Positions 23,653 through 39,105 of a stretch of 64,000 bases of DNA are shown here, piece after piece (within the stretch, counting starts at the first letter, position 1; each line of letters starts with the position of its first letter). Under the pieces are notes generated by a model. That model was not told where the DNA came from, ran no database searches, and worked only from the letters and a program-made list of their open reading frames with translations. The stretch spans positions 3,968 through 67,967 of the forward strand of contig CBDUSI010000006.1 of the NCBI GenBank assembly GCA_965370045.1, given 5' to 3'. A program made the position numbers and the translations under genes. The stretch comes from an uncultured bacterium. GTDB lineage: Bacteria; Planctomycetota; SZUA-567; JAKLDR01.

Positions 23653-23680
23653 AGGTCCGATAATATATGCGACGTTGCAG
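23653..23680 (+). other. Degenerate dif-like site (candidate attL): AGGTCCGATAA-TATATG-CGACGTTGCAG
   Basis: The first 17 nt are identical to 39078-39094. The right arm matches only 7/11 and lacks the TTATG half-site. Confidence 0.6.
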
Positions 23681-23909
23681 AGTCGCATTGAGGGAGGGCG
23701 GCAACCCAGGAGAAACCGGCCGGCGGGGGTTAGATAAACCAGACCCCGCACCACGATAAGCCGGAAGAAACCCGGGATTGAGGCCCCTCTTTTAGGCCTA
23801 ATCACCCCGACACTGAGAGGAGGTGTCGGCGGACGATTAGGCGTATTTTTTCGCTCAAAACACTTGACAAGGTTTCGTGGGGGGACCGGAAACCCGGCGT
23901 CCGGACGGT

Positions 23910-24935
23910 ATGCCGGGAGGGAGTTACACTGTTTTGGGTAAGAAGAAGACCGATCCGCCCCCGGCCGAGGAGCGCGAAGCGGCCGGGGCCGCGGTGATGG
24001 AAGAGGGGGAAGTCCCCGAGATAAGCGACGCGGAACAGCAGCGCGCCCTGGAGCGCATGGAAGCCGCGGAGACCTTCCGGGATTTCATGCGGGCGGGCGG
24101 GTCCGGCGACGAGGTGGACGTGAAGATAACCCGCCGCGGTCCCAAGAAATACGTCAGCCGGGCCGGCAAGTTGGTCACGGTCGACGTCGGCTACTGCGAC
24201 ACCGTTCCCCTGGAAATCCTGCGTCCCGTTCCCGAGGAAACGATCGCGCAGCTGTGGGGCGGTGGAGTCTACACCGTCCAGGGGCTCTTCGAGGGCCAAT
24301 CCCTCAGGGGATACACGCTGAAGGTCGGCGGCAACCCGCTGCCGATCGAGCGCGGAGAGGTCGAGACCGCCGAAGAAGCGAAGCCCGCGCAGCTGGACCC
24401 CCTGGCTCAGCTCGAAAAGCTGGCGGGGGTAATGGCCATCCTGCAGGGGGGAAGGCCGGACCGCGACCCGGTAGACGAGATCCGCCGCCTCCGGGAACTC
24501 GACGAGGAGTTCCGGCCCGCGCCGTCGGCCGCCGCGCCGGCCGGAGACGACGTTGACGACGAGCTGGACAAGGTGATGGCGAAGGGGGAGAAGAGCGAGG
24601 AGGACGAGAAGTTGGACGGATGGGTGAGGTTCGCGCAAGTCTGCCTCGAAGGCCTCAAGGTGCTCACCGGGGAAACCCCCACGACCCCCGAGGCCGCGGT
24701 GAACAAGATGCTCACCGATTACATGAATGCGAAGATCACGACGGAGGAACTGGCCAAGACGCTTCGCAAGTACGCGAAGGGCGACGAGCTGGAGGCCATC
24801 AGCTGCCTCGACCCCAAGAAGGCGCCCGCGCTGCTGGCCAGGAAGTACAAGCTCAGCGACGAGGTCAAGGATTATTTCGAGGGCGCCGCTGGCCAGCGGA
24901 AGCTCCGGGACCTTCAGAAGGCGCTTGAGTCGTGA
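23910..24935 (+). CDS. Acidic hypothetical protein (element gene A)
   Basis: Long coding-like ORF. Start uncertain (GTG 23877, ATG 23910, or TTG 23934 after GGGAGGGAG). No family recognised. Confidence 0.6.
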   Translation: MPGGSYTVLGKKKTDPPPAEEREAAGAAVMEEGEVPEISDAEQQRALERMEAAETFRDFMRAGGSGDEVDVKITRRGPKKYVSRAGKLVTVDVGYCDTVPLEILRPVPEETIAQLWGGGVYTVQGLFEGQSLRGYTLKVGGNPLPIERGEVETAEEAKPAQLDPLAQLEKLAGVMAILQGGRPDRDPVDEIRRLRELDEEFRPAPSAAAPAGDDVDDELDKVMAKGEKSEEDEKLDGWVRFAQVCLEGLKVLTGETPTTPEAAVNKMLTDYMNAKITTEELAKTLRKYAKGDELEAISCLDPKKAPALLARKYKLSDEVKDYFEGAAGQRKLRDLQKALES

Positions 24936-25183
24936 CCAGCAAATACAAGAAGAAGCACAAGTGCCCGGCCCCGGACCAGTGCCCGCTCGGCGTGAAAGAG
25001 GAGGGCTTTCCCTGCCTCTTCGCCGGCCAGCAGAAAAACACACAGACCGGGCAGATCGTCGGGAGCTGCGCTCTTGCCGATGTGGTCTACGGAATCCAGG
25101 ATCAGATGCAGATGGCGGCGCGCGCGGCGGCGGGGATTGTTCTCGCCGGCCCGGGGTTTCCGCCGGGAGGAAAACCAAGCTAG
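24932..25183 (+). CDS. Small Cys-rich hypothetical protein (B)
   Basis: GTGA-coupled to A. KCPAPDQCPLG..FPCLF..GSCALAD. Confidence 0.5.
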   Translation: MTSKYKKKHKCPAPDQCPLGVKEEGFPCLFAGQQKNTQTGQIVGSCALADVVYGIQDQMQMAARAAAGIVLAGPGFPPGGKPS

Positions 25184-25203
25184 ACCAACAAGGGAGGTCC
25201 GCA

Positions 25204-25356
25204 ATGAAACCTGATACGAAGTGGCTCCTCTACGCGATAGGCGGGTGCGCCTTCTTCCTGCTGGCCGTGGTCTGCGTGGCGGCCGGCTTCAACCCGTTCG
25301 CCTGGGCGTGGGGCCTGGCTATGGACCTGGCCCGCGCGATTGGAGGTGCGGGATGA
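25204..25356 (+). CDS. Small single/double-TM protein (C)
   Basis: AAGGGAGG SD, ATG at 25204. MKPDTKWLLYAIGGCAFFLLAVVCVAAGFNPFAWAWGLAM.. Confidence 0.55.
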   Translation: MKPDTKWLLYAIGGCAFFLLAVVCVAAGFNPFAWAWGLAMDLARAIGGAG

Positions 25357-25643
25357 TGATCCATTTTCTCAAGACCTTCCCGGAGTTTTTCGAGGCGACC
25401 CTTTCAGGTGAGAAGCGTTTTGAGGTCCGGCATTCGTACTGTCGAAAATTCGAGAAAGGAAACGTTCTCTGCCTCCAAGAGTTCACCGAGGGACGCTACA
25501 CCGGACGCGTCTACTGGGCGCGGGTGATCGCTCTTTGGCTACTGCCCACCGAACTCGCGCCGGGTCCCCTCTGCGGAATGCAGATCGAGCCGCTGAGCTG
25601 GCTTGACCTTGACGAGCTGACGCCGGCGAGGGGGAAAGCATGA
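25353..25643 (+). CDS. ASCH / DUF3850-like domain protein (D)
   Basis: MMIHFLKTFPEFFEATLSGEKRFEVRHSYCRKFEKGNVLCLQEF..YTGR matches the DUF3850 pattern (HxLKxxPxxFxxxxxGxKxFExR..GDxLxLxE..YTGR). Confidence 0.75.
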   Translation: MMIHFLKTFPEFFEATLSGEKRFEVRHSYCRKFEKGNVLCLQEFTEGRYTGRVYWARVIALWLLPTELAPGPLCGMQIEPLSWLDLDELTPARGKA

Positions 25644-37972: not shown

Positions 37973-38091
37973 CTGGCCTCCAACAAAAGACACGGCCTGG
38001 AAGAGGGGGGAGGTCCTTTCGCCCCTCACCAGACCGCGCCTGCCGATCCGCATCCTCCGGGAGCTGCCCGGAGGGTATGTCTACACGCGCT

Positions 38092-38895
38092 TTAGCTCAG
38101 CGCGTCGCGCTGAATTTCGTCCTCGCCGGGTAGCAGATCGCCAATCCGGGAGGTCTGTTGGAAGTGATCCTTTTGACTTCCACCTGGAAGCTGCGGCGAC
38201 GGGGGAGGGGAGCTCTCCCCCGCCGACCGCCGCCCTGATCCCCCCCTGGGAGCCGGATCGCCCTCGGGAGGCGCGAAGCTCTCGGCCTTGTAACCCAGGA
38301 CCAGTGCATCCAACCGCACTTGTTGCATGCGCCGGAAGAGCTTCGGGGCTTTTCGTTGCATGTCGAACTCTAGAAGCGTCGTGCTCTTTACAACCTGGGT
38401 CGCCAGCTTCTTGAGGAGCGCGTCGGGCATCCGCTCCCGGGTGGCCGTTAGAAGCATCGACCGTTCCCTGTCGTCGGCCCGGTACTGATCCAGCTCCTCG
38501 GCCTGCTTCTTGGCGATCTGCGCTCGCCTGGCCTCCTTCTCCAGCTTCATTCGCCGATCCAGGTCCTTTTGAGTGGGGGAGGGCATCCAGCCCTTGACCC
38601 GGGCCTTCACGAAGTAGCTGGTAGGACTGAAGACGCGCCGGCTCTGCATGGCCTGCTGTACGTATCTCACAGCCAAACAGGTACGCGGCAGCTCCGCAGA
38701 GCAGAGCAGCCAACGCAAGGTGATCCTGCCGTGGTCTGTCCATCCCCAGTCCCTCAGTGCCTTTTCCAGCTGCTCCCGTAGAACCTGCTCGGAGCGCGGC
38801 AAAGCCTCTGTTCCTGAACGTTTACGTTCGTTCGTCCCTTCGGGGGTAAACGAACGAACGTTAACGTTTGGTCGCGCGTGAGACACCTCCTGCAT
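38092..38895 (-). CDS. Hypothetical protein (Z), first gene of the minus-strand module; regulator/replication candidate
   Basis: GGGAGA SD plus ATG at 38895. Basic/helical. The 5' coding region carries a large palindrome. No HUH, recombinase or HTH family recognised. Confidence 0.55.
   Translation of the reverse strand: MQEVSHARPNVNVRSFTPEGTNERKRSGTEALPRSEQVLREQLEKALRDWGWTDHGRITLRWLLCSAELPRTCLAVRYVQQAMQSRRVFSPTSYFVKARVKGWMPSPTQKDLDRRMKLEKEARRAQIAKKQAEELDQYRADDRERSMLLTATRERMPDALLKKLATQVVKSTTLLEFDMQRKAPKLFRRMQQVRLDALVLGYKAESFAPPEGDPAPRGGSGRRSAGESSPPPSPQLPGGSQKDHFQQTSRIGDLLPGEDEIQRDALS
38817..38868. repeat. Large imperfect palindrome (AACGTT-T-ACGTTCGTTCGT-CCC-TTCG-GGG..ACGAACGAACGT-T-AACGTT)
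   Basis: 12-bp perfect arms at 38824-38835 / 38850-38861, outer AACGTT at 38817-22 / 38863-68, inner CCC(TTCG)GGG. Lies in codons ~9-27 of gene Z. Confidence 0.8.
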
Positions 38896-39033
38896 AGCAG
38901 TTCTCCCAACCCGGCCCCGGGCTTTTCCGGTCCCGCGGCGGCCTCTGCTGATGCGCTAGCGCGTTTTCGTCCCTCTGACACCTGTATTATAACCCCTGTT
39001 TGGCCGATCCCGGAATTATTCTCAGGCTGGGCC

Positions 39034-39062
39034 TTGACAAAAGGCCTCCCGCGAGGCATACT
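39034..39062 (+). promoter_or_regulatory. Promoter TTGACA-N17-CATACT firing toward the dif-like site
   Basis: TTGACA at 39034-39039, a 17-nt spacer, CATACT at 39057-39062. The predicted TSS is about 8 nt before 39078. Confidence 0.5.
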
Positions 39063-39077
39063 TCGCATGTCGGGGTT

Positions 39078-39105
39078 AGGTCCGATAATATATGTTATGT
39101 TGCAC
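39078..39105 (+). other. dif-like XerC/D recombination site (candidate functional dif / attR): AGGTCCGATAA-TATATG-TTATGTTGCAC
   Basis: 11-6-11 architecture with inner inverted half-sites GATAA/TTATG. Compare E. coli GGTGCGCATAA-TGTATA-TTATGTTAAAT and B. subtilis ACTTCCTAGAA-TATATA-TTATGTAAACT (both from memory). Confidence 0.6.

Follow-up and report, generated by a model that had tools for sequence, protein, structure and literature searches.

IMEXs (integrative mobile elements exploiting Xer) enter the chromosome at the host dif site by means of the host's XerC and XerD recombinases and lack an integrase of their own. TLCphi, a 4.7-kb filamentous satellite, encodes the XerD activator XafT with its DUF3653 domain, and the IMEX and dif literature reportedly extends beyond the filamentous phages to Gokushovirus prophages, Legionella LME-1, and the EcloIMEX islands. 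The attP of TLCphi, from Vibrio cholerae, matches dif in the XerC arm and the center, whereas its XerD arm diverges strongly (PMC5357621). Tailless phages with double-jelly-roll (DJR) capsid proteins are also found at dif: the phiCjT23-like prophages of Flavobacterium are inner-membrane, single-stranded DNA (ssDNA) phages that are flanked by dif and for which the use of XerC/XerD is inferred (PMC9719478), and the dif-type, PM2-like DJR prophages of Vibrio are IMEXs whose attP has a full 28-bp, a left-armed 17-bp, or a right-armed layout, which coexist with int-type relatives and conserve the terminal genes rstR/p16 and xafT/p15 (PMC12715192). Here we analyze a 64,000-nucleotide stretch of contig CBDUSI010000006.1 from an uncultured planctomycete (the window), which contains a 15.4-kb island that is probably a recombinase-less, tailless-phage-like element inserted in the host dif by hijacked host XerC/XerD.

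The original prediction, made from the letters of this DNA, had proposed a new kind of IMEX and had named as known IMEXs the filamentous phages with their satellites and the gonococcal genetic island (GGI). That list was incomplete, as the phiCjT23-like and Vibrio dif-type DJR prophages were missing from it, and the claim of a new kind is not supported, since tailless DJR phages at dif are already published (PMC9719478, PMC12715192). The island nevertheless has the features by which an IMEX can be recognized in sequence, namely a conserved single-copy target on which the FtsK-orienting motif converges, flanks formed in direct orientation by dif and a dif-like hybrid, a target that is empty in relatives, and no detectable recombinase gene; it would therefore count as an IMEX that uses an already described form of XerC/XerD hijacking.

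The island is bounded by two 28-bp sites, which lie at the coordinates, and have the sequences, that were originally quoted:

23653..23680, + strand: attL, identical to the inferred attP, AGGTCCGATAATATATGCGACGTTGCAG; XerC arm AGGTCCGATAA, center TATATG, degenerate XerD arm CGACGTTGCAG
23681..39077, no strand assigned: inserted element, ~15.4 kb with ~26 open reading frames (ORFs), missing from the orthologous locus of relatives
39078..39105, + strand: attR, the intact host dif, AGGTCCGATAATATATGTTATGTTGCAC = AGGTCCGATAA-TATATG-TTATGTTGCAC
Predicted circular attP junction: ..TCGGGGTT-AGGTCCGATAATATATGCGACGTTGCAG-AGTCGCATT.. (ends ..GGGGTT-attP-AGTCGC..)
Predicted empty chromosomal site: ..GTTTCCGCA-AGGTCCGATAATATATGTTATGTTGCAC-AGCCAAGG..

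The two sites are direct repeats that are identical at 24 of 28 positions, with mismatches only at positions 18, 19, 21, and 28. The shared 17-mer, AGGTCCGATAATATATG, occurs exactly twice in the window with up to three mismatches permitted, where dinucleotide-preserving shuffles give an expectation of 0.02 matches by chance. Identity had been described as collapsing at the boundary between the center and the right arm; the break is indeed there (17/17 followed by 7/11), but the outer right arm, GTTGCA, is kept. Conservation in the outer XerD arm of attL reaches 6/7, and a right-arm identity of 7/11 is improbable by chance (binomial estimate, p ~0.008). Because GTTGCA is retained, the right arm of attL is a diverged XerD arm and not unrelated sequence. 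Joining of the island ends gives an attP of AGGTCCGATAA-TATATG-CGACGTTGCAG within an intergenic region of ~440 bp, from which the 267-aa and 341-aa terminal ORFs would read outward in the circle. This is the layout of the TLCphi attP, in which the XerC arm and full center are like dif and the XerD arm is degenerate, here at its inner positions.

A perfect 7-bp inverted repeat, ATGCGAC-n8-GTCGCAT at 23667-23688, overlaps the degenerate XerD arm of attL/attP and may serve to bind a factor encoded by the element. An attP of the CTX type, formed by folded ssDNA, was rejected, as no inverted second dif-like site is present on either strand at up to three mismatches.

The right copy is the dif of this lineage, and the island is an insertion into it. 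The site has an 11-6-11 architecture and is identical at 18 of 28 positions to E. coli dif, with 8 of 11 in the XerD arm. A search of JGI metagenome contigs with the pattern TCCGATAATATATGNNANGTTG matched 71 contigs, each with one copy. The free positions read TTAT in 62 of the 71, which completes a palindromic ATAA-n6-TTAT dyad, and none of the 71 has the attL version, CGAC, at these positions. Among 54 distinct contexts, bases beyond the pattern are conserved as well (A-A-C/G-G on the left, C-G/A-C/T on the right), giving ASGTCCGATAA-TATATG-TTATGTTGCRY as the dif consensus of this uncultured high-GC lineage; the flanks of the matched sites are otherwise unrelated, and most of the contigs have 60-70% GC. 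The core is not limited to one clade, as the exact 22-mer is present in a few contigs of low GC (25-41%) as well.

Unoccupied sites, for which the original prediction had proposed to look in related genomes, are present in four syntenic relatives among the matched loci. In tblastn of the window proteins against these loci, L090, from a 145-kb contig, has homologs of four consecutive left-flank genes, then the site, then an OmpA-like gene, and no island (identities of 52% for a HEAT-repeat protein, 62% for a 336-aa protein, and 46% for the OmpA-like protein); the 336-aa gene lies 512 nt from the site in L090 and 504 nt in the window. In L144, L089, and L082 the arrangement is preserved in part, with a single full site and no island, and across the four loci the flanking-gene identity is 52-64% for the 336-aa protein and 37-46% for the OmpA-like protein. 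The left flank of attL (..TTTCCGCA) resembles the left flanks of these empty sites, whereas the left flank of attR, which is element DNA, is unlike them. In the other 70 metagenome loci, no second half-site lies within ~5 kb of dif. A Lon-anchored scan of reference genomes returned relatives of at most 52% identity and no synteny.

The polarity of GGGNAGGG, the E. coli consensus of the FtsK-orienting polar sequences (KOPS), also changes at this site:

1..23652, + strand: left chromosomal arm, GGGNAGGG 13 times on + and 4 times on -
39106..64000, - strand: right chromosomal arm, GGGNAGGG once on + and 18 times on -

The motif converges on dif (13:4 on the left versus 1:18 on the right, Fisher p 1.5e-5), where a second-order Markov model predicts ~3 occurrences per strand per arm. 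An unbiased scan of 3077 gapped 8-mers for a change of polarity at the site places it first (z 4.3), and its cumulative count reaches a maximum at 38576, shortly before attR. A non-redundant set of 49 high-GC metagenome loci, each oriented by its copy of the site, shows the same, with GGGNAGGG at 40:7 on the left versus 7:44 on the right (p 5e-13). We assign the site as the host dif on three independent lines of evidence, its single-copy conservation, the empty sites in syntenic relatives, and the KOPS convergence, and the earlier reading of the right copy as dif is thereby borne out.

The island itself contains nine copies of GGGNAGGG on the plus strand and none on the minus strand (expected, ~2.5 and 2.2), starting at 28283, 28293, 28526, 31618, 34976, 35735, 36174, 38202, and 38576. 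Its KOPS enrichment and polarity are like those of the left arm and directed to attR, though most of the motifs lie within minus-strand genes. This pattern suggests either selection for FtsK polarity in an element of fixed orientation at dif or long residence there; a text search of the literature turned up no paper reporting such KOPS polarity for IMEXs. The GC content of the window is 65-72%, and that of the island is host-like.

Together, these observations strongly support an integrase-less insertion in the host dif, in which attR regenerates dif and attL/attP has a poor XerD arm. In the mechanism that we propose, attP would copy the host XerC arm and the whole 6-bp center and carry a crippled XerD arm, and host XerC/XerD would recombine attP with dif to leave on the left the hybrid attL, whose XerD arm is poor, and to restore on the right a perfect dif, attR. 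With attR as a regenerated perfect dif, chromosome-dimer resolution would be preserved and would continue at this site, and the weak XerD arm of attL would limit FtsK-activated excision between attL and attR, as has been argued for other IMEXs. We infer the catalysis by XerC/XerD, because the xerC and xerD genes are not in the window, and likewise the sequence in which strands are exchanged, the requirement for an Xer activator encoded by the element, and the capacity to form virions.

The gene content of the island was established from a GC3-based map and the gene calls stored for the source contig, which agree with the ~26 ORFs originally counted between the sites. The stored calls belong to scaffold_46 of ENA ERZ23499000, which is 97.7 kb long and includes the window as its bases 4316-68315. 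Nearly all called ORFs were searched against Pfam and PHROGs and ten ORFs each against PADLOC and NCBIfam:

23910..24935, + strand: left terminal gene, 341 aa, acidic, directed inward from the intergenic region that contains attP; no family match
25353..25643, + strand: ASCH-like DUF3850 protein, 96 aa (PF12961, 1.9e-10)
25946..27058, + strand: 370-aa ORF, translationally coupled to the Dcm gene by a 4-nt overlap with its start; no library match
27055..27957, + strand: C5 cytosine DNA methyltransferase (Dcm), from Pfam and PADLOC
28639..31488, - strand: five mostly beta-rich ORFs (337, 146, 227, 102, and 126 aa) downstream of the capsid-like gene; no family match
31500..32231, - strand: 243-aa tandem double-jelly-roll protein, candidate major capsid protein, from an AlphaFold (AF2) model and homologs
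32314..32913, - strand: beta-rich ORF of 199 aa, next to the capsid-like gene on its upstream side; no match
32975..37185, - strand: membrane- or lipoprotein-like ORFs (211, 214, 154, 201, and 237 aa), with transmembrane segments and lipobox by eye; no family match
34940..35929, + strand: three small ORFs (198, 60, and 60 aa) inside the minus-strand block; no family match
37190..37972, - strand: transglutaminase-like protein with a C-terminal transmembrane segment, from Pfam; homologs in viral contigs and in SSIP-1 (gp34)
38092..38895, - strand: right terminal gene, 267 aa, basic, helical, reading inward from the attP region; no family match

Pfam and PHROGs recognize three domains only, DUF3850, the C5 cytosine methylase, and the transglutaminase core, and Pfam thereby confirms the ASCH-like, Dcm, and transglutaminase-like proteins that had been named from the translations. 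NCBIfam and PADLOC add no families to these, and ~20 of the 26 ORFs are left without a detectable family. A LamG-like fiber had been assigned to 28639-29652, and this label finds no support in the libraries. Neither tblastn against GenBank phages nor PDB sequence searches with four island proteins gave a match, and IMG/VR, when scanned with one protein at a time (the 243-, 370-, and 205-aa ORFs), gave none either.

The cargo of the island is virus-like, as was originally proposed, a reading now supported by a confident double-jelly-roll model and by capsid-like and transglutaminase-like virion genes in common with viral contigs. The 243-aa ORF has three close homologs among 5.8 billion clustered proteins, and a 72%-identical capsid-like protein occurs in another metagenome. 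An exhaustive HMMER search with a profile of the close homologs gathered 139 representatives, most of them 240-340 aa long with two matched stretches. The family is a tandem duplication of a ~110-aa beta domain, each with an end motif like GTAQxPfxLpxP...TDLSGSxNTIxxxLxG; some members are single-domain proteins of 110-135 aa, and none of 43 members has a Pfam or PHROG match. The other beta-rich ORFs of the island are not detectable members of this family.

The AF2 model of the 243-aa ORF, computed from a 51-sequence alignment (pLDDT 94, pTM 0.89), folds into two eight-stranded sandwiches. The best Foldseek match in the PDB is the phiCjT23 capsid protein (7zzz_A, E 3.7e-6, template modeling (TM) score only 0.40), followed by peptidylglycine monooxygenase, PR772 P3, and proteins of STIV. 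In BFVD, the best match is I1ZBI0 (256 aa, TM 0.71/0.67, rmsd 4.3, E 3e-9), and the tectivirus major capsid proteins (MCPs) of Wip1 and GC1 are listed as well. Against the capsids of phiCjT23, PR772, Wip1, and GC1, the TM scores of the model are 0.31-0.47, and cellular two-jelly-roll proteins score alike. We regard the 243-aa protein as a candidate MCP on the strength of this model and of the genomic company of its homologs.

That company is small- to mid-sized and phage-like. Four IMG/VR contigs of 31-41 kb (L153-L156) encode the family as two adjacent single-domain ORFs at ~9780-11040 and, on the same strand, a transglutaminase-like homolog that lies 7-9 kb upstream (E down to 1e-16). On a 7.2-kb NCBI contig (L159), a transglutaminase gene, small ORFs, and a fused capsid-like gene (5977-6939) follow one another in the order seen in the island. 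The 11.2-kb contig L158 carries a fused capsid-like gene (2256-3008), a glucosaminidase gene, and a tyrosine integrase gene (8343-9434, Pfam 1.9e-11), and the 7.2-kb contig P0051 carries a fused capsid-like gene and a small AAA ATPase gene. The capsid-like and transglutaminase-like genes thus co-occur in the four IMG/VR contigs and L159, and weakly in SSIP-1. The capsid-like family so belongs to small or mid-sized tailless-phage-like genomes, some of which possess an integrase or an ATPase, and the island has neither.

The form of the capsid-like gene varies with the contig: it is one fused gene in the island and the 7-11 kb contigs and two adjacent ORFs in the 31-41 kb contigs. L158 has an integrase instead of dif-like ends within the contig, which parallels the published split of DJR phages into int-type and dif-type.

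Around the capsid-like gene, the remaining ORFs allow assignments of lesser strength. From position only, we guess that the five ORFs at 28639..31488 include spike, vertex, or minor capsid proteins. The 211-aa ORF has a very basic N-terminus and a transmembrane segment, and the 214-aa ORF is a lipoprotein by eye; the membrane-protein cluster and the basic N-terminus fit a virion with an internal membrane, of which these would be candidate proteins. On the plus strand, the 370-aa ORF and the Dcm gene could be parts of a DNA-modification module that also includes the ORFs of the ASCH-like and zinc-ribbon proteins. Assignment of this plus-strand block to a known defense system was rejected, as PADLOC returned the methylase and one weak, sub-threshold match in the 341-aa ORF (Cas3d, E 0.0012). 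The 370-aa ORF shows a Rossmann or DUF115/MptE-like GxxxIVGxGPS pattern by eye, which no library supports. The trio at 34940-35929 interrupts the minus-strand structural block, its 198-aa member combining a CxxC...CxxC zinc ribbon with transmembrane segments, and it may be a moron or regulatory cassette.

The island appears to carry no recombinase gene of its own. None of its ORFs matched Phage_integrase, resolvase, or transposase families in the library searches, and scanning the full window for tyrosine-recombinase motifs gave nothing, in agreement with the earlier statement that none of the ORFs is recognizable as a tyrosine or serine recombinase. A companion statement, that no product contains GxxxxGK[ST], proved wrong: [AG]xxxxGK[ST] has one match, GLVEAGKS, which belongs to the 214-aa ORF (33750-34394) and by eye falls in a helical, coiled-coil part of the lipoprotein and not in a P-loop context. 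The Pfam and PHROGs scans gave no AAA/FtsK family match that would indicate an FtsK/HerA-type packaging ATPase, and the library scans of the island ORFs found no replication initiator (Rep) family. XafT/DUF3653 has no match at E<=0.01 among the ORFs submitted to Pfam, a set outside which two small called ORFs, 25204-25356 and 35747-35929, fall. An Xer activator unrelated to XafT is possible.

Of the described systems, the closest to the island are the phiCjT23-like prophages and the Vibrio dif-type DJR prophages. Like the phiCjT23-like prophages, it has no integrase, is flanked by 28-nt dif motifs, and consists of many small ORFs without family match; its candidate MCP is similarly small (243 aa, compared with 239 aa in phiCjT23), and a packaging ATPase is reported for neither. 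Those prophages, however, are 6-8.4 kb of ssDNA with a replication initiator gene beside the MCP gene, whereas the island is 15.4 kb long and has a Dcm methylase and no recognizable Rep. It shares no sequence similarity with phiCjT23, resembles its capsid protein at a structural TM of 0.40, and resides in a different host phylum. The island accordingly falls outside the phiCjT23/FLiP-like (Finnlakeviridae-like) group, which is characterized by a rolling-circle Rep beside the MCP and an ssDNA genome of 6-9 kb.

With the Vibrio dif-type DJR prophages, the island shares the left-armed 17-bp attP layout and the existence of an integrase-bearing relative (L158). We presume that these elements carry a PM2-type MCP and a packaging ATPase; the island has no detectable rstR/p16, xafT/p15, PM2-type MCP, or packaging ATPase. 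It resembles TLCphi in its attP, with conserved XerC arm and center and degenerate XerD arm, and differs in that its ORFs submitted to Pfam contain no DUF3653. The GGI is likewise non-filamentous, without its own integrase, and flanked by dif and a degenerate dif (difGGI), but is 57 kb long, encodes a type IV secretion system, and is not virus-like.

SSIP-1 is an unclassified, 43.8-kb circular double-stranded DNA virus isolated on Salisaeta, with an AAA ATPase, gp40, and with gp34 and gp47 annotated as structural; it is not known to integrate. The transglutaminase-like protein of the island matches gp34 (phmmer 4.5e-4), which has a transglutaminase core as well (Pfam 8.9e-7); the matches of the island to the IMG/VR contigs L153-L156 are clear. 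The capsid family motif gives a weak hhalign match to gp47 (E 0.0016-0.0018), a protein of 256 aa and thus of the same length as I1ZBI0, which we presume to be SSIP-1 gp47; gp47 is probably a capsid-like protein. What is new in the island is not the mode of insertion but the host lineage, an SSIP-1-related capsid-like family without a Pfam or PHROGs model, the larger size, and the lack of a recognizable Rep, ATPase, or XafT.

The remainder of the window is chromosomal in character. The genes flanking the island are ordinary ones, including purD, an RsmB/F-family methyltransferase gene, truD, ilvC, lon, and a Ser/Thr kinase gene. A tRNA as integration target was rejected, as scans of the window gave no tRNA and no Rfam RNA match. 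A low-GC patch at ~6900-9050 (~0.56, compared with 0.65-0.72 around it), between purM and the next host genes, contains two ORFs with poor GC3 signal, one of 253 aa on the minus strand and one of 392 aa with transmembrane segments on the plus strand, and looks like a separate horizontally acquired insert.

Several observations weigh against the reading of the island as a phage-like element inserted by XerC/XerD. The GC skew, which the original prediction had proposed to check, is weak (left, -0.009; right, -0.027) and marks no terminus on its own; a gene-level split of GC3 skew was too noisy for use. None of xerC, xerD, and ftsK lies in the 64-kb window. The attP-type site is absent from the metagenome and IMG/VR scans, and the island is known from one genome, its nearest homologs lying on contigs too short to show ends. 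The two-jelly-roll fold matches the cellular peptidylglycine monooxygenase with scores similar to those for viral capsids, that for phiCjT23 being TM 0.40. No circular or episomal copy was found, the contigs with the capsid-like gene all being at least 20 kb long and read as integrated. The island has no recognizable packaging ATPase, Rep, lysis gene, or XafT/DUF3653, and the element may be defective or a satellite.

The main uncertainty concerns the activity of the element, which may be that of a virus or may be lacking in a passenger, either defective or a satellite. The Xer insertion at dif could be real and the element a defective or domesticated remnant, or a satellite, carried as a fixed passenger without virions or replication of its own; we consider this unlikely, yet it is the alternative that deserves the most weight. 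It would explain the missing packaging ATPase, Rep, lysis, and Xer-activator genes, the first of which relatives possess (the P0051 contig and SSIP-1 gp40), but a packaging ATPase is also unreported for phiCjT23 (PMC9719478), and its absence is no proof of defect. The host-like GC content and the 9:0 KOPS enrichment and polarity fit long residence, and the failure to find an episomal form fits a fixed passenger; KOPS polarity is equally selectable in an active element whose orientation on integration never varies. Against this alternative, every ORF and both att sites are intact, the ORFs are tightly packed, and the 72%-identical capsid-like protein in another metagenome indicates a lineage that is not unique to this genome.

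It is very improbable that an unrecognized recombinase of the element, such as the terminal 341-aa or 267-aa protein, targets dif with XerC/XerD uninvolved. The ~20 ORFs without a detectable family leave room for such a protein, and the 7-bp inverted repeat overlapping the element-specific arm could bind an element protein. The identity between the sites, however, comprises exactly the XerC arm and the center and ends at the XerD-arm boundary, as in published Xer-dependent attP sites, and the outer XerD arm is still conserved at 6/7; the ORFs show no tyrosine-recombinase catalytic motifs, and the libraries return no serine-recombinase family. The notion that the 28-mers belong to a regulatory or dispersed repeat family, or match by chance, and bound no mobile element is effectively refuted: although the sequence available amounts to only ~98 kb of the genome, each of the 71 metagenome contigs has one copy, relatives have a single copy at the orthologous position without the island, KOPS polarity switches at the site, and the number of matches expected by chance is 0.02.

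Taking insertion of a tailless-phage-like element by XerC/XerD as the preferred reading, one may tentatively go further, to a picture that is possible but that we would not expect to hold in full. The island would represent an undescribed family of ~15-kb temperate, membrane-containing phages, whose fused DJR capsid gene is homologous to the paired single-jelly-roll genes of larger SSIP-1-like viruses and which package their genomes without a dedicated ATPase. XerC/XerD would be recruited by a new, non-XafT activator encoded beside attP, and the genome would have been shaped by FtsK/KOPS selection arising from its fixed orientation at dif.

For an uncultured high-GC lineage, the analysis yields both the dif site and the FtsK-orienting motif, GGGNAGGG, from computation alone. 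Xer-exploiting prophages of tailless, capsid-bearing phages, described in Flavobacterium and Vibrio, gain a further host group and a further family of capsid proteins, both new, and the series of fused and split capsid genes could bear on the origin of double-jelly-roll capsid proteins. The host-like KOPS enrichment and polarity of the island suggest that an IMEX has its sequence shaped by residence at dif.

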